A stretch of DNA of 64,000 nt from the NCBI GenBank assembly GCA_951406725.2, contig OX597817.1, forward strand, positions 52,266,001 to 52,330,000, given 5' to 3'. A program made the translations under genes and the position numbers. Each line of letters opens with the position of its first letter. Position 1 is the first letter of the stretch. The stretch comes from Octopus vulgaris. Taxonomy: Eukaryota. Positions 22,035-59,229 of this stretch are shown piece after piece. Below the pieces are notes generated by a model. It saw only the letters and a list, made by a program, of their open reading frames with translations. It was not told the DNA's origin and did no database searches.

Positions 22035-22073
<39 letters not shown>

Positions 22074-23416
22074 CATCATCATCATCATCGTTTAACGTCC
22101 GTTCTCCATGCTAGCATGGATTGGACGGTTCGACCGGGGATCTGGGAAGCCAGAAGGCTGCACCAGGCTCCAGTCTTATCTGGCAATGTTTCTACAGCTG
22201 GATGCCCTTCCTAACGCCAAACACTCCGTGAGTGTAATGGGTGCTTTTTACGTACCACCTGCACAGGTGCCAGGCGAGGCTGGCAACGGCCACGGTCGGA
22301 TTGGTGTATTTTACGTGCCACCGGCACGGAGGCCAGTCGAGGCGGCACTGGCATCGGCCACGAGTCGGATAGTGCTTTTTACGTACCACCAGACCAGGGA
22401 TCCTGGCTGGTTCAATTCGATTTCGATTTCGCTTGCCCCAACATGTCTTCGCAAGCAAAGGGGGTTGGCATGGGTGCCTGTCGTTGGATGAGGTTCTATA
22501 TCGACTTCGCTTGCCTCAACAGGTCTTTGTGTCCAAGGGAGGAAAGGCATGCATAAGTGGGCTGGGCTCACTTGACTTGCCTGGTCTTCTCACGTACAGC
22601 ATATTTCCAAAGGTCTCGGTCGCTGGTCATTTCCTCAGTGAGGCCTAAAGTTCGAAGGTCGTGCTTCACCACCTCGTCCCAGGTTTTGCTGGGTCTACCT
22701 CTTCCACGGGTTCTCTCAACTGCTAGGGATTGGCACTTTCTCACACACCTATCTTCATCCATTCTCGCCACATGACCATACCAGCGCAATCGTCTCTCTT
22801 GCACACCACAACTGATGCTTCTTAGGTACAACATTTCTCTCAAGGTACCAACGCTCTGTCGAGTATGTACACTGACATTACACATCCATCGGAGCATACT
22901 GGCTTCATTCCTCACAAGCTTACGCATGTCCTCAGCAGTCACAGCCCATGTTTCACTGCCATGTAGCATGGCTGTTCATACACATGCATCATACAGTCTG
23001 CCTTTTACTCTGAGCGAGAGGCCTTTAGTCACCAGCAGAGGTAAGAGCTCCCTAAACTTTGCCAGGCTATTCTTATTCTAGCAGTTACACTTTCAGCACA
23101 CCCACCCCAACTACTGACTTGGTCACCTAGATAACGGAAGCTATCAACTACTTCTAGTTTTTCCCCCTGGAATGTGACGGAAGTTGTTTTCTGCAGATTT
23201 TCGGAGGTTAATGCTCCCGAGCATCTGCCACATACAAAAACTATCTTCCCAGTTAGCCTACCTTTGACATTGCTGCACCTCTTATGTGTCCATTGCTTAC
23301 ACTGGGTACATCTTATAGAGTTTCTACCTACACTTTTTCTACAGATCGAGCAGGGCCATCTTCCTGAAGACATTTGTGGATTGTCTACCTTCCTACTTAT
23401 TACGACTTTGGTTTTA
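22074..23416 (-). mobile_element. 5'-truncated RTE LINE (PHD finger, C-terminal ORF region, 3' UTR)
   Basis: [32 protein letters not shown] and RRLRWYGHVARM; frameshifts; (GAT)n tail; both ends lie in (TA)n. Confidence 0.92.
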
Positions 23417-28825: not shown

Positions 28826-30415
28826 CTACTTCTCAAACGCGGTGGGTACTTTCTTCTAAGCCAACTTTCTCTATTCTTCCACTCTGTCTTGACAATGGTG
28901 TTACTCCAGAACAGTGGAAAACTGCCAGTGCCATCCCTCTGTTCAAAAAAAGCGACCGCACATCGCCTGTCAACTATCGCCCCATCAGTCTTACTAGCTG
29001 CATCGCCAAACTGATGGAATCCTGTATCAGAGAAACCCTCTGGAACTTCTGGAAGTCTCACAGCCTCATCCAGCCGTCACAATTCGGATTTATTCCTAAC
29101 TCCAGCTGCTGTAGTCAACTCATCGAGTTTCTTGAGGACGTTACCCAAATCACTGATCGCGGACCCTGGGTGGATGTTGTTTACCTGGACTTTGCTGAGG
29201 CTTTTAACTCTGTGCCACACAAAAGACTTATGGTGAAGCTTTCTGCGTTGGGTGTAAGAGACGAACTCTATAACTGGTTGAAGTCCTTTATTTTCGGCCG
29301 AAAAGAGGTTGTCACAGTTCTAGGACAGCACTCTTCGCCCTATGAGATGGCATCCGGTGTACCACAGGGATCTGTTCTTGGCCCCACCTTTTATTTGTTG
29401 CATATGTTAATGACATAGATGCCAACTTAAAGAATGCCACAGTGCTGAAATATGCAGATGACATCAAGCTGTACCTCGAAATAAAGATATCAAATCCTGA
29501 ACACTACAGATCCCTATTGCAAGCAGACCTGGACACAATGCAGCAGTGGATCATGGACTGGCAACTCAAGCTGGCTGTGGGCAAATGTACCACCATGCAT
29601 TTTGGGAGGAGAAACCCAGCGTCCACCTACTCCCTCCACAACACTAGTCTCAAAAAGTCTTCATGTGAACGTGACCTGGGTGTTATTGTCTACAGTGATT
29701 TGCGTTGGACAAAACACATCGCTAAAATTGTCAAGAAGGCTGAGGGTGTCTTGGCATCACGCACCAAATCCTTTGTGAGCCGCTCTCCGGCTATCTATCT
29801 GCGGCTTTATATAGCTATGGTAAGACCTCACCTGGAATTTGCATCACCAGTATGGAACCCCTATCTTGCCCAGGATATCAATCGTCTGGAAGCCGTTCAG
29901 CGACGTGCAACCAAAAGAATACCCTCCATCAGGCATTTGCCATATCCTGAATGCCTTTACTTCCCTGGGCATGAACACATTGAAACTCCGACATCTGGCA
30001 GCTGACTTGGCAGACACCCATAAAATTATCAACCATCGTACAAACAATAACTCTGAGCACCTTTTCAAACTCCACCCATCTAACACCCATGGACATATTT
30101 ACAAAGCCAGAAAACAGCACAGCTCCCATGACTTCAGGAAACATTTTTTCATGCTGAGAGTTGCTGAAGCATGGAACAAACTGCCGGCATCAGTTGTTAG
30201 TTGTCGGAGCACTGCATCCTTCAAAACTTCCATGCTTTCTGAGATTCGCCAACACTACACCTGATTTTCTCCCCTCCATACACACACAAGCATGTATCTG
30301 ACTCATACATTGTTCGCTTTCCAGACATTTTTACATTACTGCATGTACTTTATATGCACTTTCTGACAAGTTGTGGTGCACCTGAGCACTGTATACAAAA
30401 ATTTCATTATTATTA
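28826..30415 (+). mobile_element. 5'-truncated CR1-group LINE (RT and 3' UTR), frameshifted
   Basis: NYRPISLTS, VVYLDFAEAF, GVPQGSVLGP, YADDIKL, VRPHLEFASPVWNP; (ATT)n tail. Confidence 0.93.
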
Positions 30416-30869
30416 TAAAAACGAAATATTTTCTGTTATAACCAAGATACTTTTGTAATGTTGTGTAATGTACGACTAGATTGCCTTAAGTATAATTAAT
30501 ATGCATTAATGCACTAAAAAGGAGTCTTCCCGAATATGTACTACTGAGATTGGGGTGGATCTAAGACACCCTGCATCTTTTATGCCATCAAATACAGTAT
30601 TTAAGCGGCTGATTTCCCAACGGCAGCAAAACTGTTTTATTATGCAAGGTACATAACTCTGTCTTAGTTTGCCTGGCTATCAAAAGTTCAAATTCGTTTT
30701 TGCTCATGATTGAATTATAAGTTAATAATAGGAAATAGAGCTAAATTAAAAACAATTTCTCCTAGGAAACTCAATTCATTGAATCTGAAAATAATAATGA
30801 AAAATTAATGTAAATCATTAAAAGAATTATATAAAAAGAATGACAATATATATTATATAAAAATATATA

Positions 30870-37059: not shown

Positions 37060-38333
37060 CCCAAATCACTGATCGCGGATCCTGGGTGGATGTTGTTTAC
37101 CTGGACTTTGCTAAGGCTTTTAACTCTGTGCCACACAAAAGACTTATGGTGAAGCTTTCTGCGTTGGGTGTAAGAGACGAACTCTATAACTGGTTGAAGT
37201 CCTTTATTTTCGGCCGAAAAGAGGTTGTCACAGTTCTAGGACAGCACTCTTCGCCCTATGAGATGGCATCCAGTGTACCACAGGGATCTGTTCTTGGCCC
37301 CCCCCTTTTATTTGTTGCATATGTTAATGACATAGATGCCAACTTAAAGAATGCCACAGTGCTGAAATATGCAGATGACATCAAGCTGTACCTCGAAATA
37401 AAGAGGTCAAATCCTGAACACTACAGATCCCTATTGCAAGCAGACCTGGACACAATGCAGCAGTGGATCATGGACTGGCAACTCAAGCTGGCTGTGGGCA
37501 AATGTACCACCATGCATTTTGGGAGGAGAAACCCAGCGTCCACCTACTCCCTCCACAACACTAGTCTCAAAAAGTCTTCATGTGAACGTGACCTGGGTGT
37601 TATTGTCTACAGTGATTTGCGTTGGACAAAACACATCGCTAAAATTGTCAAGAAGGCTGAGGGTGTCTTGGCATCACGCACCAAATCCTTTGTGAGCCGC
37701 TCTCCGGCTATCTATCTGCGGCTTTATATAGCTATGGTAAGACCTCACCTGGAATTTGCATCACCAGTATGGAACCCCTATCTTGCCCAGGATATCAATC
37801 GTCTGGAAGCCGTTCAGCGACGTGCAACCAAAAGAATACCCTCCATCAGGCATTTGCCATATCCTGAATGCCTTTACTTCCCTGGGCATGAACACATTGA
37901 AACTCCGACATCTGGCAGCTGACTTGGCAGACACCCATAAAATTATCAACCATCGTACAAACAATAACTCTGAGCACCTTTTCAAACTCCACCCATCTAA
38001 CACCCATGGACATATTTACAAAGCCAGAAAACAGCACAGCTCCCATGACTTCAGGAAACATTTTTTCATGCTGAGAGTTGCTGAAGCATGGAACAAACTG
38101 CCGGCATCAGTTGTTAGTTGTCGGAGCACTGCATCCTTCAAAACTTCCATGCTTTCTGAGATTCGCCAACACTACACCTGATTTTCTCCCCTCCATACAC
38201 ACACAAGCATGTATCTGACTCATACATTGTTCGCTTTCCAGACATTTTTACATTACTGCATGTACTTTATATGCACTTTCTGACAAGTTGTGGTGCACCT
38301 GAGCACTGTATACAAAAATTTCATTATTATTAT
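37060..38333 (+). mobile_element. Second CR1-group LINE copy, near-identical to 28826-30415
   Basis: Same RT motifs, same frameshift at PECL and same tail. Confidence 0.93.
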
Positions 38334-40279: not shown

Positions 40280-41334
40280 CCAAGTCAGTAGTGGGGGTGG
40301 GTGTGCTGAAAGTGTAACTGCTAGAATAAGAATAGCCTGGGCAAAGTTTAGGGAGCTCTTACCTCTGCTGGTGACTAAAGGCCTCTCGCTCAGAGTAAAA
40401 GGCAGACTGTATGATGCATGTGTACGAACAGCCATGCTACATGGCAGTGAAACATGGGTCGTGACTGCTGAGGACATGCGTAAGCTCGTGAGGAATGAAG
40501 CCAGTATGCTCCGATGAATGTGTAATGTCAGTGTACATACTCGACAGAGCGTTAGTACCTTGAGAGAAATGTTGTACCTAAGAAGCATCAGTTGTGGTGT
40601 GCAAGAGAGACGATTGCACTGGTATGGTCATGTGGCGAGAATGGATGAAGATAGGTGTGTGAGAAAGTGCCAATCCCTAGCAGTTGAGGGAACCCATGGA
40701 AGAGGTAGACCCAGCAAAACCTGGGACGAGGTGGTGAAGTATGACCTTCGAACTTTAGGCCTCACTGAGGAAATGACCAGCGACCGAGACCTTTGGAAAT
40801 ATGCTGTACGTGAGAAGACCAGGCAGGACAAGTGAGCCCAGCCCACTTATGCATGCCTTTCCTCCCTTGGACACAAAGACCTGTTGAGGCAAGTGAAGTC
40901 GATATAGAACCTCATCCGACGACAGGCACCCATGCCAACCCCCTTTGCTTGTGAAGACATGTTGGGGCAAGCGAAATCGAAATCGAATTGAACTAGCCAG
41001 GATCCCTGGTCTGGTGGTACGTAAAAAGCACTATCTGACTCGTGGCCGATGCCAGTGCCACCTCGACTGGCTTCCGTGCCGGTGGCACGTAAAATACGCC
41101 AATCCGACTGTGGCCGTTGCCAGCCTCGCCTGGCACCTGTGCAGGTGGCACGTAAAAAGCATCCACTACACTCACGGAGTGGTTGGCGTTAGGAAGGGCA
41201 TCCAGCTGTAGAAACATTGCCAGATAAGACTGGAGCCTGGTGCAGCCTTCTGGCTTCCCAGATCCCCGGTCGAACCATCCAACCTATGCTAGCATGGAGA
41301 ACGGGCGTTAAACGATGATGATGATGATGATGAT
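40277..41334 (+). mobile_element. 5'-truncated RTE LINE, closely related to 22074-23416
   Basis: DQVSSGGGCAESVTARIR..., internal stop at 40515-40517, shared diagnostic MLYLRS and RCVRKCQSL; (TA)n flanks. Confidence 0.92.
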
Positions 41335-45514: not shown

Positions 45515-45851
45515 TAAAAGAGGCAGAGTAGAATATGGGAGCCAGTATTAAGAAAAGATACAAAAGTAATAGGTTTATAAGCCCTACAATTCACTCTATA
45601 ATTGCCCATAGGCATATAGCATAGTGGTTAAGAGTGCGGGCTACTAACCCTAAAATTCCAGGTTCAATCCCAGAATAAATAAAAATAATAATAAAGAAAT
45701 TATTGTCTACAGTGCTCAGGTGCACTACAACTTGTCAAAAGTGCATATAAAGCATATGTACATTAATAACATCAGCAAAAATACCGTAGGAATGAGAACA
45801 GAGTACCCCAGTTGGACACCTGATGAAGGCTGGAGAGTACATCAGCCGAAA
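45515..45851 (+). mobile_element. tRNA-head plus hammerhead element, interrupted by a CR1 3' fragment and truncated after GAAA
   Basis: tRNA-like 45610-45673 (TAGCATAGTGG, GGTTCAATCC); acac-CTGATGA-aggctg..cagcc-GAAA at 45816-45851; homologous to 58390-58705. Confidence 0.7.
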
Positions 45852-46209
45852 GGTGAATATTGTACAAATGGAAATCGTAGTTAAGATACCCATGCCGGTG
45901 ATACGTAAAAAGCACCATCCGAACGTGGCAGATGCCAGTGTCGGTGACACGTAAAAGCACCAACCGATCGTGGCCATTTGTCAGCCTCCTCTGCCGGTGG
46001 CACGTAAAAAGCACCCACTACACTCATGGGGTGGTTGGTGTTAGGAAGGGCATCCAGTTGTAGAAACACTGCCAGATCAGACTGGAGCCTGGTACAGCCC
46101 CTGGCTTCCCAGACCCCGGTCGAACCGTCTAACCCATGCTAGTATGGAAAACGGACGTTAAACGATGATGATGATGATGATGATGAATTCTTCATTTCTA
46201 AAATATAGA

Positions 46210-46777
46210 ACAGTAAATCAACTTTGTCTTTCATCCTCTCTGGTCAGTGAAATAAAGACCAGTCTAGCACTAGGGTCGATGTAATCAACTAGTAGCCCCT
46301 CATTCTACCAAAATAGAAAGGATTATTATTATCATTATTGTAAAAGCAATTAAGGTGATGAGCTGGCAGATTTGTTAGCAGGCCAGGTAAAATGCTTACT
46401 AGCAGGCTTTACATTCTGAGTTCAAATTCTGCTGGGGTCAGTTTCACCTTTTATCCTTTCAGGGTGGATAAAATAAGTACCAGTTGAACACTGGGGTCGA
46501 TGTAATCGTCTCATCCCCCTTCCCCCAAAGTTGCTGCCCTTGTGGCAAAATTTGAAACCATTATTGTTAAAGCGATTGGCTGACAGAATTGTTAGCACAG
46601 CAGACAAAATGCTTTGCAGCATTTTGACCGTCTTTCCATTCCAAGGTTAACTTTGCTTTTCGTCAGGGTAGATAAATTAAGTACCAGCTATACACTGTGG
46701 TCAATAAAATTGACTAGACCCTCCTCCAATTTCAGGCCTTGTACCTATAGTGAAAAGTATTATCATCATCATCATCA

Positions 46778-46835
<58 letters not shown>

Positions 46836-47548
46836 CATTATTATTATTAAGGTGGTGAGGTGACAGAATCATTAGCATGATGGACAAAATGCTTGGCAGT
46901 ATTTCACCTGTCGCTGCATTCTGAGTTCAAATTCCGCTGAGATCGACCTTACCTTCCATCCTTTCAGGGTCAGTAAATGAAGTACCAGTGAAACACTGGG
47001 GTCGATGCAATCGACTAGTCTCCTTCCCCAAAATTTCAAGGCCTTGTACCTATAGTAGAAAGGATTATTAATATTATTATTATTATTATTAAGGCGGTGA
47101 GGTGGCAGAATCATTAGTATGCTGGAGGAAATGCTTAGCAGTATTTCGTCTGTCTTAATGTTCTGAGTTCAAATTCTGCTGAGGTCGACTTTGCCTTTCA
47201 GCCTTTCAGGGTTAATTAAATAAGTACCAGTTACACCCTGGGGTTGATGTAATCGACTTAATCCCTTCCCCCAAACTTGAGGCCTTGTGCTTCCAGTAGA
47301 AAGGATTATTATTATTGTTGTTGTTGCTATTAAGGTGGTGAGGTGTCAGAATCGTTAGCACACCAAGCAAAATGCTTAGCAGCCTTTTGTCAATCTTTAT
47401 GTTATGGGTTCAAATTCAATCAGGGTTGACTTTGCCTTTCATTCTTTCAGGGTCGATAAAATAAGTACCAGTTGAGCACTGGGGTTGATTTAATCAAATT
47501 AGCCCCTCCCCACAAATTGCTGGAATTATGCCTATGATGGAAAGGATC
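46210..47548 (+). repeat. Head-to-tail array of about six family-B SINEs separated by (ATT)n
   Basis: Units start aagg(c/t)ggtgag(c/g)tggcagaa near 46351, 46569, 46849, 47091 and 47332; most end tagaaaggattattatt. Confidence 0.85.
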
Positions 47549-47554
47549 ATTATA

Positions 47555-47587
<33 letters not shown>

Positions 47588-47929
47588 GAGTGAGAGAGCA
47601 GTGCATGCCATCAAAGTTACACTGGGGTACAAATATACGAAGTCCAATATACCCATCATGATGACCCATCTGATAAGAGTACACCAGGCACATATATCAC
47701 AACCATATGTGCGTGACATTGTGATCTCATATCAAGATAAATAGCACATGATCTTCATGTGGGGGTCCACTTAGTATTTTCTCCAGGTTGAGTAGCCCAT
47801 CCCACTCAAACGGTCCCTGAATTAGGATTGTTTAAGGATTTTGAACGAACCACACATGTTTCCAAAGGTAAATTATCTAAACCTCCAAGAATTCCTTTCA
47901 ACACACGGCTATGATGCTCCCCCAATACA

Positions 47930-48250
47930 GTTCCATTGGACTCTCTATTCCAATTTTCTTTATATTTCCCTTGATACCTTCTGATACTGTTCCCAAGGAC
48001 CCAGCAATAATTGGCACTATCTTCACCTTCTTCATATTTCATACTTAAGAGGGTTGTATTTATCTATTTTTTTGCCTTCCTTCTTGATTATTTGTGGGTC
48101 AGAGGAACATACAACATCAACTATATAGCATATGTGGTGCTCCTTGTTCACCAGGTCCAGTCTGCTATGCTCTAGCACCTGATCTGTTTGGATTGGGAAA
48201 TCCCAGAGGATTTTGCTAGTCTCCAACTCTGCCACTCTCTGCGGTTAGTG
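47930..48250 (-). mobile_element. RLE-type (R4/Dong-like) LINE fragment
   Basis: KILWDFPIQTDQVLEHSRLDLV..YIVDV..KKIDKYNPLKYEI and VPIIAGSLGTV. Confidence 0.75.
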
Positions 48251-49040
48251 CTCTGACAGAATTGTTAGCATGTTAGACAAAATACTTAGTAAAAAACATT
48301 TCATTTAATTTTTCCACAATTTAATTTTTTTTCATGCTTTACTCTAAGCTGAAAAAGTTGCAAAGACTGAAACCGGTACTAAAATGTTCTTCATGATAAA
48401 ATTATTTTAGCATTTTCTACCTTGTCTTATTTTCCTTATTTTCCTTATATGGCATCCAGCTGTAGAAACATTGCCAGATAAGACTGGAGCCTGGTGCAGC
48501 CTTCTGGCTTCCCAGATCCCTGGTCGAACCGTCCAACCCATGCTAGCATGGAGAACGGACGTTAAACGATGATGATGATGATGATGATATATGTATAGAT
48601 AAATATAAAGGAATACAAAAAATGGGACAAGAATGCAAAACATCCAAACAATTAGATGATACAAAAAAGGGAAAAAAAAAAAAAACAAAGACGGGTAATT
48701 TGGAGTTTTTTTTTCTTAGTCAAATTCCAGATTATCTTTGCAATTTCAGCTGGTTATACTCAAGATTGCTCCAATCTGGCTAGCCACAAGAAAAAAACTA
48801 AGCTAAGAGCACTAGATTCCTTGGGAAAAAGCAGCAAATGTATATGAAAACAAGGATGGAAAAAAATATGGAGAAATGGTACACAAATACAAATGCAAAC
48901 AACAGGACATTAACTACAGGTGTCTTTCGACTAAGGACGAATTAAATTAAGCTGGTGTGTGTAGAAGTAAAGCCTTATGGCAGCATACATATAATTATAT
49001 TGCATACATATATGACAATGTTTTTAATCATATTTTCTAG

Positions 49041-49206
49041 GGTTTCAGCGACATCCTGATGGCAAAGTACAAGAAACAAAAGGAATGCCCAGTCCGGAAT
49101 CATTCTACAAATATATTCAAGACAACCAGCCTGTAATGATGTCAGGAGCAATGAAGAATGTCCCAATAGCTAAAACATGGGAAAAAGATGATTACTTAAA
49201 GGAAAA
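49041..49206 (+). CDS. Secreted JmjC/Cupin_8 protein, exon 2
   Basis: tattttctag|...|gtaagt, phase 1-2; GFQRHPDGKVQETKGMPSPESFYKYIQDNQPVMMSGAMKNVPIAKTWEKDDYLKEK, a typical Cupin_8 N-terminus. Confidence 0.92.
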
Positions 49207-49530
49207 GTAAGTGACCGTTTTCTTTCAAAATTTTCCAAGATGATGAGAGGTCTTGGATCTGATACAATGGACATGTGGTTAGATTGATGCAGGAACGAAT
49301 CACAAGACAAATTCTTCAAGTCAAGCTAATTGCCAAAGGACCTAGTAGTAGACCCAGAACAAGATGGTTGGATGATATCTATAGCATGGGCCGCCTACAT
49401 GCAGGTCACTGACTACGTGCTTCCAACCTGTCAGGTCTGCATGCTTTATCACCTTCCCATCCCTGCAGGACTTTTGTAAAAAATAAAATAAATATACACT
49501 AAAAATAGATAAATATATACTAAAAATAAA

Positions 49531-52500
49531 TATGGGGTTGGTGGCGTGAGTATACTTATCGCTGAGAAATGGGTAGATAAAGTAATTGAGGTAATCAGAG
49601 TATGTGACAGAATACTTAAGATTAGATTAGTGCTTCATCATAGTTTAGCAACCATTATATCAGCCTATGCTCCTCAGTCGGGGCTACCCGATGGACAGAA
49701 AGACCGATTCTATGACACTCTACTGCAGACTACCTCGTTGACGAATGACAGAGACCTTCTCTTTGTGGCTGGTGACTTCAATGGTCACGTTGGACGACAT
49801 GCTGGGGGCTTCCATGGCGTACATGGAGGCTATGGCTATGGCTCCCGCAACGAGCAGGGAACCAGGCTACTGGAGTTCTGCGATGCAAATAATCTGATGA
49901 TTTGCAACACTAACTTCAGGAAACCTACCAGCCACCTAGTCACTTACCGATCGGGCCAACATACCAGACAAATTGACTACATCCTTGCAAGGCAAAGGGA
50001 GAGATGGCTGCTTATAAATGCCAAAGCCTTCCCAGGCGAAGAATGTACCCCACAACATAGACTGGTAGTTAGTGACTTCAGGATCAGGACTAGGAGGACA
50101 ACCAGAAGACGACCAATATGGAGAAGAAGGATCTGGAAAGCTTAAAGATCCTGCAAATGGACAGAGATTTAGGGACATATTACTTGAAGCCTTTGACGAA
50201 GTAGAAGGGGATAGAGCATCACAGGGGGTAGAAGACAACTGGACGTTTCTAAGATACAACCTGCTGAGAGCCACTGACAAGATCTGTGGCTGGTGCAAAG
50301 TCCCCTCTCGACCTAGAATAACGTGGTGATGGAACAATATTGTAGACAGGGCTATTAGAGAAAAGAGACAGGCTTGGAAGGTCTGGAAAAATGGGGGTAG
50401 CAGGGAATTGTATCAGACTGCCAAAAGAGAAGCTAGGAGACAGGTTTATTTAGCCAGAGGGGAAGCAGATAAGAAAAAATTTGCCAATGTTCTGCACCGT
50501 GAGGACCAAAGACTGGAGATGTTTCGCGTTGCAAGACAGTGTGTGAGAGAGAATCGTGATGTGGTAGGAGAGAAGTGTGTTCGCATGGAAGATAGTTCAC
50601 TTGCGCTAAATGAGGATGCAAAGAGAGAGGTTTGGAGACACCACTATGAAAGGTTGCTGAATAAAGAAAATGAATGGGATAAAGAGAGTCTGCCGAATGT
50701 TGACCCAACAGAGGGACCAGCTATCCGAGTTGATAGTTCCGTGGTAGCTAAGGCAATTAGAAGCATGAAGACAGGGAAAACCCCAGGCCCATCAGGAATC
50801 ACTGCAGAGATGCTCAAAATGTCTGGTAGTGTCGGCTATAGCCTAGTCACCCGTATAGTTAATCAGGTGATACACAAAGGAGTCATACCCAATGACTGGT
50901 GTAGCAGCATAATAGTCAACTGCTACAAAGGTAAAGGTGACGCCCTAGATACAAATAACTACAGAGGTATCAAGCTGTTGGATCAGGTGATGAAGGTTAC
51001 GGAGAGGGTCATAGCCCAACTAATTAGAGAGAGAGTTAGTTTAGATGAGATGCAGTTTGGGTTTGTGCTAGGGAAAAGTACCACTGATGCTATATTCCTG
51101 GTAAGGCAGCTGCAGGAGAAATACCTAGCCAAAGATAAGCCCCTGTACTTGGCTTTTGTTGACATGGAGAAAGCCTTCGACAGGGTCCCCCGATCCCTTA
51201 TCTGGTGGTCAATGAGGAAACTAGGGATAGATGAATGGTTAGTGAGAGCTGTGCGGGCCATGTATAGGGATGCTGCTAGTAAGGTGAGGGTTGGCAACGA
51301 GTACAGTGAAGAATTCCGGGTAGAGGTAAGGGTCCACCAAGGCTCAGTCCTCAGCCCCCTCCTATTTATCATAGTCCTCCAGGCAATAACGGAGGAATTC
51401 AAGACAGGATGCCCTTGGGAGCTCCTCTATGCTGATGACCTTGCTCTAATTGCTGAGTCGCTATCAGAACTGGAGGAGAAGTTTCAGGTGTGGAAACAAG
51501 GATAAGAATCGAAGGGCCTCAGAGTCAATCTAGCTAAAACCAAAGTCGTAATCAGTAGGAAGGTAGACAAATCACAAACGCCTTCAGGTAGATGGCCCTG
51601 CTCGATCTGTAGAAAAGGTGTAGGTAGAAACTCTATAAGATGCACCAAGTGTAAGCTATGGACACATAAGAGGTGCAGCAATGTCAAAGGAAAGCTAACT
51701 AGGAAGATGGTTTTTGTATGTGGCAGATGCTCAGGAACAATAAACACTGAAAATGCTCTGAGACCAACTTCCGTCACTTTCCAGGGAGAAAAACTAGAAA
51801 TAGTTGATAGTTTCCATTACCTAGGTGACCAAGTCAGCAGCGGGGGCAGGTGTGCTGAAAGTGTAACTGCTAGAGTAAGAATAGCTTGGGCAAAGTTCAG
51901 AGAGCTCTTACCTCTGCTGGTGACAAAAGGCCTCTCGCACAGAGTAAAAGGCAGACTGTATGATGCGTGTGTACGAACAGCCATGCTACATGGCAGTGAA
52001 ACATGGGCCGTGACTGCTGAGGATATGCGTAAGGTCACAAGAAATGAAGCCAGTATGCTCCGATGGATGTGTAATGTCAGTACTCATACTCGGCAGAGTG
52101 TAAATACCTTGAGAGAAAAGCTGGACCTAAGAAGCATCAGTTGTGGTGTGCAAGAGAGACGTTTGCGCTGGTATGGTCATGTGGCGAGAATGGATGAAGA
52201 TAGTTGTGTGAAAAAGTGCCACACCCTAGCGGTTGAGGGAACATGCGGAAGAGGCAGACCCAGGAAAACCTGGGACGAGGTGGTGAAGCACGACCTTCGA
52301 ACTTTAGGTCTCACTGAGGAAATGACTAGAGACCGAGACCTCTGGAAGTGTGCTGTGCGCGAGAAGACCCGGCAGGACAAGTGAGTCCATAACCCGTGGC
52401 CTTCTACATGGGATGGAGCCAGCCTACGTATGCATACCTTCCCTTCTTGGGACACAAAACTCTACTTGTGAAGACCTGTTGAGGCAAGGAGGATCAGAAT

Positions 52501-52925
52501 CGAAATCGATCAATGGAAATTGCAGATGTGTTACCAGTGCCGGTGGCATGTAAGAGAACCATCCGTTCGCGACCGTTGCCAGCGCCGCCCCGACTGGCCT
52601 CGTGCCTGTGGCACGTAAAAAGCACCATCCGTTCGTGTCCATTGCCAGCCTCGCCTGTCCCCCTTGCCGGTGGCACATAAAAAGCACCATCAGTTCGTGG
52701 CCGTTTGCCAGCTCTGTCTGGCACCTGTGCAGGTGGCACGTAAAAAGCACCCACTACACTCACGAAGTGGTTGGCGTTAGGAAGGGCATCCAGCCGTAGA
52801 AACACTGCCAGATCTGACTGGGCCTGATGAAGCCTTCTGGCTTCACAGACCCCCAGTTGAACCGTCCAACCCATGCTAGCATGGAAAACGGACGCTAAAC
52901 GATGATGATGATGATGATGATGATG
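49531..52925 (+). mobile_element. Near-complete RTE LINE (partial APE, RT, PHD finger, 3' UTR) in intron 2, with 12-bp TSD
   Basis: GDFNGHVG, IDYIL, YRGIKLL, QGSVLSPLLF, LYADDL; ACTAAAAATAAA at 49519-49530 and 52926-52937; frameshift ~50140, stops at 50327 and 51503. Confidence 0.95.
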
Positions 52926-53942
52926 ACTAAAAATAAAATTAGGGTTAGGGTTAGGGGGAAAGAAAGGACATATCGAGCAGAGTTCAGCAATGCCTGTGCA
53001 GAGTTTTAGGTCCAATAAGGCTTATATGACACCTCATAGACCCTTTCCTCTCTATTGACATTATCCAGAGACAAGTCAGAGCGAGATGTCTGGTGCCAAT
53101 ATGAGTCGCAGGCTCAGGGATGTGGGTGTACCATGATCTCTAACACAAACCAAAGACCCTGCAAAATGTCCAATGCCATTCCCTACATATCTGGTTTTAT
53201 ATCAGAGTGACCTTAACCTAGAGACATGCTTCAAGAGAAACTGATGGGTGCCTCACTCTCAGTGGTCTTCTAGCACACTGGACACCATCCCAGTATTTCT
53301 GCATGCCCATGCTATTGCTAGATAGCCATTAAGCCTGCACTAGGTTCATCTGACCTTTGAACAGGTCTTGTTTTTAATCCTGCTGGGTTTCTAGCAACCC
53401 TCCCCACCAGGGTAGCCTGCCAGTTTAGTCGCCAACAACCTGACCACGCAACAGGTTGTACTGGACACCATGTTACCAGTAGCACTTGCAAGAACCTCAT
53501 AAGTGACCTCACACATACGTACGTACATACATATATACATACATACATACATGCATACATGCATACATACATACATACATACATACGCACATACACGTAT
53601 ATATAGAAAGATAGGCAATTTCTCCTCACCCAAGACAGAGATAGGATTCAGTTGCTGCAGGGGTGACTAGCAGCTCCATTTGGAGAGGCCACTGCTCACC
53701 TGGAGGCTAGGAAGTTTCTAGAAAAGGTGAACCAAAAATTTACTATCTTTCTGTATGTATGTATGTACGTATGTATGTAGATGCAGGAGTGGCTGTGTGG
53801 TAAGTAGTTTGCTTACCAACCACAGTGTTCTGGGTTCAATCCCACTGCATGGTACCTTGGGCAAGTGTCTTCTACAGTAGCCTCGGGCCGACCAAAGCCT
53901 TGTGAGTGGATTTGGTAGATGGAAACTGAAAGAAGCCCATCG

Positions 53943-53994
<52 letters not shown>

Positions 53995-54341
53995 TGTGTA
54001 TGTATATGTTTGTGTGTCTGTGTTTGTCCCCCCAACATCACTTGACAACTGATGCTGGTGTGTTTATGTACCCGACACTTAGCGGTTTGGCAAGAAAGAC
54101 CGATAGAATAAGTACTGGGCTTACAAAGAATAAGTCCTGGGGTCGATTTGCTCAACAAAAAAAAAAGAACATACATACATACATACCTTGTTGTTGAAAT
54201 TCCAATGAAGGAGTCTGGAATCTAGGTTAGAAACTGACTCTTTCTCTATTGGCAAGAAATCTTGAAATAAAACTAAACAATGGCATATATATATATTTCT
54301 ATAATTATCTCATTTCTTTTATTTGAATTCAATTTTGTCAG

Positions 54342-54501
54342 GTATGGGAATATATCTGTGCCTGTGAGTGTGCGGAAACAACAATTTCCAGGTCAAGTGA
54401 GAATCGTTCAAATGAAATTCAAGAAATTCCTTCTTGAGTACATGTATGAAGACTGGTATCTTGCAACAACCATTCCACTTCAAATGGCTAGTGAACTAAC
54501 T
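54342..54501 (+). CDS. Secreted JmjC/Cupin_8 protein, exon 3
   Basis: ttttgtcag|...|gtgagc, phase 2-0; YGNISVPVSVRKQQFPGQVRIVQMKFKKFLLEYMYEDWYLATTIPLQMASELT. Confidence 0.92.
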
Positions 54502-54666
54502 GTGAGCTATAGATATGTTTTTTTTCCCCCACTTTTTCTCTCACTCTCTTGTTTGTTGTGTCCCCTTCTTTTTTTTTTCACTCTACTATCTCAATCTATC
54601 GTTCCCTTTTTCATATACATACATAAATACATACATACATATAAGTGAGCAAAAGTGTACGTACGC

Positions 54667-54714
<48 letters not shown>

Positions 54715-54716
<2 letters not shown>

Positions 54717-55000
54717 CAATTAGGACAAGAATGTAAAACATCCAAATAGACGATACAAAAAACACGGACAGGTCATTCGAAGCCGTTAATCTTCAGTCAA
54801 GAACCAGATCATCCTCGCAATTTCGGCTGATTAATCTTGAGATTGCTCCAATCTGGCCAGCTCCAAGGAAAAACTAAGCTAAGAGCATTAGATTCCTCGT
54901 GTAACATCGTTCATTTTTCTGTCCTTGTTTCGTACACATTTGATCCTTTTTCCAAGGAATCTAATGCTCTTAGCTTAGTTTTTCCTTGGAGCTGGGCAGA
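54715..55000. mobile_element. Penelope-type fragment with ~45-bp inverted arms; related copy at 48600-48975
   Basis: ccagctccaaggaaaaactaagctaagagcattagattcct vs aggaatctaatgctcttagcttagtttttccttggagctgg. Confidence 0.55.
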
Positions 55001-55671
55001 TGACTAGTGATTTCAGTAGCACTCACCAGCACCTTGGGTTAAACTCAACTGCCCTTGTCAGCTTATAAGATCACTGTTCCTAACGCCGACCACTATGAGA
55101 GTGGAGTGGGTGCATTTTATGTGCCACCAGCATGGGAGCCTGTCAGGCAGTACTGGCATTGGCCACGTTTGAATGGTGCTTTTTATGTGCCACACTTGGA
55201 ATTTGCATCACCAGTCTGGAACCCCTATCTTGCTCAGGACATTGACCTCCGGGAAACTGTTCAGAGACGTGCAACCAAGTGAATACCCTACCAGCTTCAG
55301 TGTTGCTGCCAGGAATTGAAAAATAGGGCAGATTTTTCTCACTTATTTTGTGATTTAGGGGGGATTTTTGAAAAGCAAAGGGGAATTCACGGCGGTGTTC
55401 ATCAAACAAATTAAACACACTACCTGGCAGTGGCTAAAACGCAAACTGATTGAGTTTGTGTATAAATTTTCTTTTTATGTTTGTTTCCTTTTACACAATG
55501 GCTAAAATTTTTCTGAAGCAGCACCCTCCTCCCACTAATTTTGTCTATGAGCCACCACTGCATTCAAATTACTCTATTAAATGTAATGCTTATTTGTTCA
55601 CATTGTTTTAAATTGATCATGCATTGTCTTATAACCATCAAGATTTCAATGATGTGACAGTTTATCTTTAA

Positions 55672-56145
55672 CCCTTTCGTTTCTGTATTTCTGTTGAGAT
55701 GCTCTGTGTTTCTTTCAATTACTTTAGATATAACAAAGAATTTAGTAAAATAACTTAGTTATCATTAAGCTAGTGTTAGGAACATAAATTGTGACTAAGG
55801 TTTGGTGGAAGATTTTAATTCAAAACTTATGTAAACAAGACATTTGTACTATAGAGCCAGAGCTGGTTTTAGCCAGGTTGGTATCGAAAGGGTTAAGAAT
55901 TTTTTCTCTATTATATATTTTAATCCTTTTCTTACCATATTTCTGTTGAGATGCTCTGTGTTTCTTTCAATTAATTTTAAATATAACAAAGAATTTAGTA
56001 AAATAACTTAATTATCATTAAGCTAGTGTTAGGAACATAAATTGTGACTAAAGTTTGGTGGAAGATTTTAATTCAAAACTTATGGAAACAACACATTTGT
56101 ACTACAGAGCCAGAGGTGGTTTCAGCCGGGTTGGTAACGAAAGGG
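55672..56145. mobile_element. Two tandem piggyBac-like MITEs (55672-55892, 55924-56145) nested in another piggyBac-like MITE
   Basis: TTAA flanks, CCCTTTCG..CGAAAGGG termini, ~221 bp each. Confidence 0.8.
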
Positions 56146-56294
56146 TTAAAATGACATTGTAGGAAAGATGCAAGAGGCTGGATCTGACTGGTTTGAACAT
56201 AAAACTGGTAGAATATATTTGAGCTGGATATGGTCAGTTTGAATGCTAAAGGGTTAATTTCAGATTTATAATAATTTTCATTTAAATATTTTAG

Positions 56295-56486
56295 ATTCCT
56301 CAATGTCTCAGTTGTGGATCTTATTTCCACCGTCTGCTTGAGTCTGAGTTATGGATTAGCAGTGGTTTTGCCAATACCCAACTACACAGTCATTCCGATC
56401 ATATTCTACACTGTTTGCAGTTTGGACGTCGAGATTTTATTCTCATGAAAAAGGAATACAAGAAAAATTTCGAATTTGTGGAAGAG
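56295..56486 (+). CDS. Secreted JmjC/Cupin_8 protein, exon 4 (metal-binding strands)
   Basis: tattttag|...|gtttgt, phase 0-0; IPQCLSCGSYFHRLLESELWISSGFANTQLHSHSDHILHCLQFGRRDFILMKKEYKKNFEFVEE. Confidence 0.92.
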
Positions 56487-57464
56487 GTTTGTGAGGCTGT
56501 TGTCTACATTACTTTCTCTCTTTTTGTCTGTCTCTCCTTGATCTCTCTCTCTTACCCTGCTCTCCCTTCTCTCTCTCTCTCTGCTCTCTCTCTCTCCCTC
56601 TCTTTTATCATTTGACATCCGTGTTCCATATTAGCATGGGATGGAGGTTCCACAGGACCTCACTAGCTGGTTGGGATGGGTAGCTGTGCTGGTTTTCAGG
56701 GTATAGATGGCAACTAGATGCTAGCTGTAGTCATTGGTATTAGGAAGAGCAAAAAATTAAAGAATTTATATATATCTCTATATCTATAAATGGCAAAATG
56801 TCTGTGTATCAGTATTGCTGCCAGGAATTGAAAAATAGGGCAGATCTGTATGTCTGTGTGTCCTTTATACAAATCCACAGTTTTTCACGTAAAAGGCTCG
56901 CATTTTCTATGGGCTTTCAAAACTGTCTGAGGGTGGCCGTGAAGATCTTTTCATTTCCCCAGTCACTCCAGAAAGCCATTAAAAAAATCGATAAACCGAC
57001 CCCTTATGCCCAACAGTTGAATGCGCATGCACATTTGCAGACAGTCTGTATGACTCTGCGCATTTTTGTGTTTTGCGAAGATGCGTTATCATGTGTTTTG
57101 GCTTTCAAATGTGCATGCTTTTTTGATTTGAGAAATGCAGAGAATGATTAACGAGTTAGACCAAGTAAATGACAAGAGAGAGGGATTTTCATGAAAGACC
57201 AAAAATGCTTGGCTAGCACTAGTGGTAGTATATATATATATATATATATATAAATATTGCCAGTACCGCCTGACTGGCCCTTGTGCTAGTGGAATGTAAA
57301 AAGCATCCACTACACTCTCAGAGTGGTTGGTATTAGGAAGGGCATCCAGCTGTAGAAACTTTGCCAGATTGGATTGGAGCCTGGTGCAGCCATCTGGCTT
57401 GCCAGCCCCCAGTCAAACCGTCCAACCCATGCCAACATGGAAAGTGGACGCTAAACAATGATGA

Positions 57465-57499
<35 letters not shown>

Positions 57500-57850
57500 T
57501 ATAATAAGAATAGTTTCAACCAGTGGTCAGCATACTTAAAAAACGTCCAAGGACCATGAATTCTATTTAAATATAAACAATAGGAGAGACCACTATGTGG
57601 ATCCCTTGTATACTAAAAATAGATGTCAAACCATCTTATCACGAAATCTGTGTTCTCAAATAAGCAAAACGCTAGATGTTTACGAGCTAGACAAATGAAA
57701 AGAAATACACATAGATATATAGTGGCCATGTAGTATGTAGCTTACCCCAGCATGGCGTCAGTCCAGTGAGAGAAGCAAGTGAAAGAGTGAAATGATAAAT
57801 AAATAAACTAAAGCAAAGCAAAATCACGAATTTTTGTTTTTATTTTTCAG

Positions 57851-57983
57851 TATCCCACATCAATTTCTGGTCATTCTCCACTGGACATGAACAAAATAAA
57901 CATGTTCAAACATACCAACTTTGCAAAAACCCCATGGGTATATGCTAGTCTCTATGGTGGAGATTGTCTGTATATACCGGCTG
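57851..57983 (+). CDS. Secreted JmjC/Cupin_8 protein, exon 5
   Basis: ttatttttcag|...|gtatgt, phase 0-1; YPTSISGHSPLDMNKINMFKHTNFAKTPWVYASLYGGDCLYIPA. Confidence 0.93.
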
Positions 57984-58216
57984 GTATGTATGTTACATTA
58001 TCTTACAAACATTCATAAAACCCAGGAATGGATTAATCCTTTTTCTGAGTATTGGAATCTCACTTACTACAATCTATATTTTGTTGTGTCTTCAGAGAGT
58101 CATTAAGCCATTTATTATACCACATGCACTGGTTCTTTACTGTTAGTTAATTGGTTTAATATCTAACCAACTAATCAATCATTTGTTTAAGGAATTGGTT
58201 AAACAATCAACCAGTT

Positions 58217-58797
58217 ATTTACATTATTTACATATTTGACATATTTGTCCTCATCTTGTTTCTTGTTAACACAACGTTTCAGCTGATATACCTTCCAGCC
58301 TTCATCAGGTGTCTTGGGGAAATTTCAAACCTTGGTTCTCATTCCTAAGGTATTTTTCGATGTTGTTATTATTATATAATAACCTCCTAAGCAGACCGAG
58401 TGCAGATATGAGCAGCATATGAGAATCGGTATTAAGAAAGGATAGAAAAATATAAGATTTATAAGCCCTGAAATACATTCCATAAATGCCCATTGGCATA
58501 TGGCATAGTGGTTAAGAGTGTGGGCTACTAACCCCAAGATTCAAAGTTTGATTCTGCCGCCGCCACCGCTGATGACAAAGACGACGCTGCCACTGCCAAT
58601 GTCACCGACAACAATGACAAATGCCTTAAGAATGAGAATCCAGGTTTAAAATTTTCCCAAGACACCTGATGAAGGCTAGAGTGTATATAAGCCAAAACGT
58701 TGTGTTAACAACAAATATGATGAGGACAAATATCTGTCAAATGTAAATAATAGAAATTATGTACATAATTCCTCGTCTCTTAAATATAGAACTGTAG
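58217..58797. mobile_element. tRNA-head plus hammerhead element with inverted terminal segment and 12-bp TSD
   Basis: AATCAACCAGTT at 58205-58216 and 58798-58809; 58217-58355 is inverted relative to 58621-58760; tRNA-like 58494-58555. Confidence 0.8.
58269..58312 (-). ncRNA. Minimal hammerhead ribozyme; the plus-strand twin at 58662-58705 has GAAA>AAAA
   Basis: acac-CTGATGA-a-ggctg..cagct-GAAAC-GTT-gtgt with palindromic ACGT stem III. Confidence 0.7.
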
Positions 58798-59229
58798 AAT
58801 CAACCAGTTGTTTGTTAGTCAAAGTTCTTTTGTCCTTGTTCATGACCTTTTTTGGTGACTTCACCTTGTTTCAATATTTATTCCAACAAGATGAATTCAC
58901 ATCAAGAATCTTGCAAACCAAATACAAAAATGAAATATAACCTATATATCTTATTAAATTCTTGTCATTGTTTAGCTCAAAATCAGTCCTGATTGTGAGC
59001 AAAGAATCCAATTACGATTGTTCCATCTTTATCCCCTAGTAGAGGGGAATGGGGGGAGCTGAGAGGCTGTATTCCAGGTGATGCTTTTACGATAGTAGCA
59101 TCTCTAGGTCTGCTGTATAAGTCTGTAGAACAGCACCTCCTCATCCAAGGTGAAAGTTTTGCGGATTTTTTAGGAGAGACATGTATTAATTTCAAAGAAG
59201 TACAAAACTCTAATCTCCTTCAATGTTGG

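Follow-up and report, generated by a model that had tools for sequence, protein, structure and literature searches.

The repeated unit found at two places in a 64,000-nucleotide stretch of the Octopus vulgaris genome (contig OX597817.1; "the window" hereafter), which joins a tRNA-derived head to an (AAT)n linker and a hammerhead ribozyme, is the pseudo-long terminal repeat (pLTR) and open reading frame (ORF) start of an autonomous Penelope-like element (PLE). Both window copies are decayed, 5′-truncated pieces of this element, which is of the Penelope/Poseidon type. The A/B-box head of the pLTR is probably an RNA polymerase III (Pol III) promoter. A preliminary description of the window had proposed a non-autonomous, ribozyme-processed family mobilized by a Penelope element. 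The positions of the two copies, their A- and B-box motifs and simple-repeat linkers, and the inverted end and target-site duplication (TSD) of copy 2 were all found in the sequence as described, and the Penelope mobilizer is borne out by the autonomous PLE, which carries both head and hammerhead in its pLTR.

Copies 1 and 2 are alike over positions 45526-45664 and 58410-58548 (114/139 nt identical, 82%), and their hammerhead cores (45815-45854 and 58661-58700) agree at 34/40 nt (85%). In both, A- and B-box-like motifs flank GGG-CTACTAA-CCC and are followed by a simple-repeat linker. The direct part of copy 2 begins at 58378, so that 128 nt separate its start from the A-box reference base downstream, and copy 1 begins at ≈45526. 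The features are as follows:

45526-45580, forward strand: copy 1, terminal codons of the PLE GIY-YIG ORF; stop codon 45578-45580 within the "TATA-like" motif
45581-45603, forward strand: copy 1, short spacer from ORF stop to head
45604-45672, forward strand: copy 1, tRNA-derived head with 5′ hairpin (A box at 45617-45627 and B box at 45661-45671); 45604 is the counterpart of the inferred RNA start
45673-45768, forward strand: copy 1, A/T-rich linker, broken by a 74-bp foreign repeat piece (45685-45758)
45769-45854, forward strand: copy 1, pLTR ORF-start segment; ATG 45792, truncated minimal hammerhead 45815-45854
58205-58216, forward strand: copy 2, left TSD, 12 bp, perfectly matched by the right TSD
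58217-58377 (right limit approximate), reverse strand: copy 2, inverted pLTR piece, from tail site 1 back to the linker; hammerhead core intact, 58268-58313
58378-58464, forward strand: copy 2, decayed terminal codons of the PLE ORF, with the stop codon at 58462-58464
58488-58554, forward strand: copy 2, tRNA-derived head with 5′ hairpin (A box at 58501-58511 and decayed B box at 58545-58555)
58555-58615, forward strand: copy 2, linker of GCC/GAC-rich simple repeats, where most copies have (AAT)n(AAC)n
58616-58797, forward strand: copy 2, pLTR ORF-start segment; ATG 58632, hammerhead 58661-58706; ends at tail site 2
58798-58809, forward strand: copy 2, right TSD, 12 bp

The assembly (2.8 Gb in 227 contigs) was searched with exact patterns, whose counts are lower bounds on copy number. 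A 33-nt head pattern gave 1992 matches, a 32-nt tail pattern 3983, and an ORF-start pattern 36; the reversed patterns used as controls gave none in the genome, which excludes chance occurrence. The head-anchored sample comprised the first 70 head matches by position (68 after removal of two duplicates), and the tail-anchored sample the first 50 tail matches minus one containing an N, with ends read by eye; two pairs in these samples are arms of one insertion. Thirty loci each were sampled with the ORF start and with a related protein. Contigs from four differently labelled organisms cover the ORF end, head and tail, with borderline bridging records.

The upstream flank with a TATA-like box is indeed shared by the two copies, but it is the C-terminus of the PLE ORF: the "TATA-like" motif, TTTATAAG, contains the stop codon. 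Among the 30 best matches to the flank and head of copy 2, the upstream extension was variable, two spanning the full 1.5 kb fetched, and the DNA upstream of the head translates to a reverse transcriptase (RT, with YVDD) and GIY-YIG-type motifs. A natural stop-free piece of 563 aa is 37% identical (E = 2e-108) to an 836-aa protein of Anolis carolinensis (P0057), presumably Poseidon_Ac (PAc) judging from species and length. The majority ORF, assembled from 68 pieces, has 835 codons, and copies average 91% identity to the majority. Pfam placed RVT_1 slightly below its cut-off and returned no match for GIY-YIG, a motif that is visible in the alignment to P0057. Ordinary 5′ truncation leaves the ORF end behind as this flank, so the circular or tandem RNA intermediate that had been invoked to explain it is not needed.

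In the unit, the ORF end is followed by the head, the (AAT)n(AAC)n linker, the ATG, the minimal hammerhead, the two tail sites and the remaining ORF; the majority ATG lies 70 nt upstream of the hammerhead cut, at 21 nt into the post-linker segment. All 30 loci retrieved with the related protein belong to the head-bearing PLE family, and in five of them (L276, L284, L288, L297 and L302) a pLTR piece, the ORF, the head and the pLTR follow one another in order; locus L253 also has a partial-tandem pLTR structure. The features of Penelope/Poseidon elements are thus present, namely a single ORF encoding an RT followed by a GIY-YIG endonuclease, a partial-tandem pLTR arrangement around it, 3′ ends at two tail sites, and 5′ ends with inverted pieces (one adjoins the 5′ end in up to 49/70 copies, by a loose criterion). 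The class assignment is one of pairwise similarity and architecture. The tail region (58616-58794 and homologues) varies in length by 9-nt units, keeping the ORF frame, and a second B-box-like motif (58636-58655 and homologues) lies between the start codon, which it directly follows, and the hammerhead.

In the majority head, the A and B boxes match the consensus at tRNA spacing, and the best match is tRNA-Arg, at 49-50/74 nt among 27 distinct genomic tRNAs sampled, from which many isotypes are missing. Run on the window and on a clean copy, neither ARAGORN nor Rfam called the head, and it has no cloverleaf fold, as the tRNA stems do not pair. Of the A/B-box head described earlier, the boxes and the tRNA descent are thus retained and the tRNA fold is lost. 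Judged by its sequence, the head is tRNA-derived, stands at the 5′ end as in a short interspersed element (SINE), and has the profile of a SINE head, with boxes kept and cloverleaf lost. It likely derives from a simple tRNA-SINE, ending in (AAT)n, that the pLTR captured. A free SINE with the same head was not found in 1.1 Mb of fetched DNA, which yielded weak cousins only; the 11/70 head copies that have no tail segment were considered as candidates, and the ones viewed show no clear TSD and look damaged. RNase P-type processing at tRNA position +1 was rated low, given the unpaired stems.

The 5′ ends of the copies cluster at the head, consistent with the Pol III-type start suggested previously, which we regard as likely. 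In the head-anchored sample, 51/70 ends (49/68 without the duplicates) lie at most 24 nt upstream of the A-box reference base; a further 7/70 lie at 28-38 nt, mostly short fold-backs that mimic the upstream sequence, and 12/70 copies continue into the ORF end. The rate of 5′ ends was 0.043 per nt at the head edge compared to 0.011 beyond it (binomial p = 7e-8, 68 copies). The tail-anchored copies end in the post-linker segment (14), in the linker (9), inside the head (6), at its 5′ edge (16) and beyond (4). Sixteen of the 20 copies that reach the head edge stop there (by eye), corresponding to a hazard of 0.062 per nt at the edge against 0.0035-0.0042 downstream, a ≈15-fold spike. Two of the 30 ORF-start loci (L250 and L251) start at the head edge and continue into the ORF, and in four of the 30 an ORF piece is joined directly onto the head edge, as expected if the RT reaches the 5′ end of the RNA there and then jumps. 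The 3′ ends fall at tail site 1 (30/70) and tail site 2 (21/70), 129 and 154 nt into the ORF, respectively, in agreement with the two positions at which the anole element is primed internally (PMC11167929). An automatic TSD search gave three calls, too few to fix the start of the copies.

A second indication comes from runs of four T (T4), since Pol III terminates at four or more T, as established for vertebrates (PMC3141230), the host here being an octopus. The coding strand of the majority ORF has no T4 run in 2387 nt, and the head and tail have none. The expectation was 2.7-3.0 under codon shuffling (P = 0.025-0.038), 4.0 under base shuffling (P = 0.015) and, when other codon usages were assumed, 5.3-7.0 (P ≤ 0.002). 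Broken T runs were also lacking in the majority sequence (joint P = 0.007). Natural copies contain 28 T4 runs in 74 kb, which are scattered, no site having one in more than four copies; the 99 shared variants do not give rise to any. In comparison, a control PLE family from the same genome has 18 T4 runs in 1944 nt, and two metagenome relatives have 13 and 15 in ≈1.6 kb.

We propose that transcription would start ≈13 nt upstream of the A box, where there is a small GC hairpin, and would continue into, and probably through, the ORF. The RT-endonuclease would then prime internally, at the tail sites, and copy the RNA as far back as its 5′ end; internal priming at two tail sites has been shown in vitro for the anole Poseidon (PMC11167929). 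Such priming could give rise to the thousands of short head-to-tail copies, which are probably dead-end products of the PLE, while fold-back at the hairpin or template jumps may produce the inverted and partial-tandem ends. Priming at the downstream pLTR of a read-through RNA would yield longer 5′-truncated copies like both of those in the window. In its full form, the proposal is that a protein-coding PLE is transcribed end to end by Pol III from a captured tRNA promoter, with terminators purged over 2.7 kb, and that the uncapped RNA is translated via its tRNA-like and (AAU/AAC)n leader. We offer it tentatively, and read-through of a Pol III RNA together with its translation is a possibility of the same guarded kind. 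The (AAC)n part of the leader recalls the CAA-rich translation enhancers of viruses.

Several observations weigh against this proposal. The samples consist of the start of one contig or of best-scoring matches, the head- and tail-anchored samples have five loci in common, and no intact copy was present among the copies examined. The 5′ ends are spread over ≈20 nt, so that we infer the exact start, and the hairpin by itself could stop or divert the RT. The coding strand is T-poor (22%, compared to 28.5% in the control) and the protein Phe-poor, like that of the relative P0004; part of the lack of T4 runs is therefore a matter of composition. The strictest T4 test gives P of about 0.03, G4 runs are absent too (not significantly), and the control family is no close relative. 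No indexed RNA run was listed as containing the element. Three unstranded RNA runs showed equal depth on both strands, a depth that tracks copy number, and no start or end peaks; 87-89% of the reads continue into unlike flanks, and the reads in these runs are passenger transcription. The PLEs that have been studied have intron-bearing, Pol II-type pLTR promoters (PMC8557442), and translation of an uncapped Pol III RNA lacks an explanation.

A two-tier arrangement, which shares the Pol III part with our proposal and differs in the mRNA, is a doubtful alternative. Here, the protein would come from rare Pol II read-through RNA, and the Pol III RNAs from the pLTR head would be shorter and serve as template only. 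The excess of short copies over ORF-start copies (1992 and 3983 compared to 36 exact matches) is in line with this arrangement, as are the upstream tandem pieces, which stop at scattered ORF positions (≈60 to 1500 nt), but the lack of T4 runs along the whole ORF, beyond its first few hundred bases, is left unexplained by it.

It is unlikely that the element is a Pol II-transcribed Poseidon in which a captured tRNA-SINE head and (AAT)n are mere passengers in the untranslated region, with the pile-up of 5′ ends caused by a chance Pol II start or by RT fold-back at the hairpin. The head with (AAT)n does resemble a simple SINE, and the 3′ half of the head is weakly like an abundant SINE head of the genome (profile ≤19 bits). 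The inferred start bears a GCCC/GGGC hairpin, and ≈13/37 copies have a fold-back junction there (by a rough regular expression); the lack of T4 runs, moreover, is modestly significant in the strict test. However, a stall at the hairpin should end copies on its 3′ side, whereas the most frequent 5′ ends, 17-19 nt upstream (14/70), keep the whole hairpin. The A and B boxes are perfect though the tRNA stems are lost, and no TSD is visible around head and linker in the majority sequence.

The linkage of head and hammerhead noted earlier was upheld, with the hammerhead region downstream of the head in 53 of the 70 position-ordered head copies. The minimal type I core, as expected of a PLE pLTR, is conserved in 116 units (by eye), and Rfam gave no match to it in either the window or a clean copy. 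Both window copies do contain a minimal hammerhead, as reported, but the direct-strand ones are damaged. That of copy 1 stops at the cleavage triplet, without the 3′ strand of stem I, and has lost the stem III palindrome, and in copy 2 G12 is changed to A; the inverted arm of copy 2 alone keeps its core intact. Minimal type I hammerheads of metazoan PLEs, which are predicted to need a dimer, have an extra base between positions 9 and 10.1 and a palindromic 15.2-16.2 pair without a loop (PMC4209133). The octopus ribozyme shows both by sequence and no difference from them. It is predicted to be an ordinary dimer-type PLE ribozyme that leaves no mark on the copy ends: only 1/70 3′ ends and 3/49 5′ ends lie near the cut site, which speaks against the ribozyme-processed templates of the preliminary description.

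Short and ORF-bearing copies were compared in 75 short and 41 long units, the long set being biased by its mode of retrieval. The main haplotypes occur in both, and the two classes are intermixed on the unit tree, with 32 label changes compared to 34.1 when shuffled (≈220 columns, low resolution). Moderate evidence thus indicates that the short copies have no lineage of their own, apart from an autonomous partner, as a SINE would have; nor do they, in the annotated loci, form tandem hammerhead monomers with cleavage-set ends, as in retrozymes. With the unit being the pLTR and ORF start, the non-autonomous family did not hold up. A self-propagating, ribozyme-processed SINE-like family with circular or tandem RNA and a PLE acting in trans is highly improbable, and for the two window copies largely refuted. 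In its favor, most copies are short head-to-tail units that begin at the head, the frequency of one diagnostic non-CpG site is unequal in short and long units (p = 0.0006), and two minor alleles occur in 6/75 short and 0/41 long units. Against it, the haplotypes and tree do not separate the classes, the ends do not pile up at the cut site, and head-to-tail arrays of the short unit were not seen in the annotated loci. The short copies, moreover, extend 129-154 nt into the ORF, whereas in the anole Poseidon, another family, the template must include the first 172 nt of the ORF (PMC11167929).

Among the closest known systems, Poseidon_Ac, like the octopus element, has a single ORF of ≈835 aa with an RT plus, at its C-terminus, a GIY-YIG-type domain, a pLTR that overlaps the ORF start, with a hammerhead cut that lies downstream of its start codon, a pair of 3′ tail sites, and copies of inverted and partial-tandem form; in contrast, the excerpted account mentions no tRNA-derived head or Pol III promoter (PMC11167929). 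The Helenus, Ajax and Cassandra terminal-repeat retrotransposons in miniature have a small-RNA-derived Pol III promoter in the terminal repeat, tRNA-like in Helenus, but are non-autonomous LTR elements (PMC10886601), whereas the octopus element is a protein-coding PLE. RTE-1_DAn, an autonomous non-LTR long interspersed element with a tRNA-like piece, belongs to another element class (PMC5786205). Animal non-LTR retrozymes share the type I hammerhead in a short PLE-related unit, but are tandem, non-coding and cut-defined (PMC7229834; 10.64898/2026.07.22.740005), while the octopus units are dispersed, part of a coding element, and have ends that ignore the cut site. No PLE with a tRNA or Pol III head was found in the literature, with subscription journals, Repbase/Dfam and bioRxiv supplements outside the search and an earlier annotation possible; the main-text passages of PMC13282606 contain no such detail. 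A metagenome scan returned distant PLEs only, none with an A/B-box pattern. The schistosome SM-alpha repeat likewise carries a type I hammerhead in a short PLE-related unit.

Other repeats were seen alongside these copies. The 74-bp piece in the linker of copy 1 recurs in the window at 91% identity (45685-45758, 30342-30416 and 38259-38333). In the linker of copy 2 (58555-58615), GCC/GAC/GAT triplets replace the usual AAT/AAC, more mildly so at loci L172 and L067; either drift of the microsatellite or a cluster of A-to-G changes may account for them. The window is also filled by several other abundant SINE-like families (D4-D20, and positions 45860-46166), one of which, ending in (GAT)n, directly adjoins copy 1, and at least three further tRNA-type heads occur in the fetched loci. 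An inverted pair of 992 bp (22072-23063 and 40340-41331; 97% identity) is a young dispersed repeat. A second abundant PLE family (L062:2000-3150, L314-L343), which looks Naiad-like and served as the control for T4 runs, has a majority frame of at least 648 codons and a long T-rich 3′ region; no A/B-box head was seen in this family.

On the proposed reading, thousands of SINE-looking repeats can be dead-end by-products of a single PLE, which is a trap for repeat annotation. RNA polymerase III normally makes only short non-coding RNAs. If the proposal is true, the octopus element breaks the division between coding retrotransposons, transcribed by Pol II, and their non-coding SINE-like passengers, transcribed by Pol III, and would provide a natural example in which a Pol III RNA serves to express a long ORF. 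The start of the PLE RNA and its translation would then be directly testable with a 300-bp promoter fragment.

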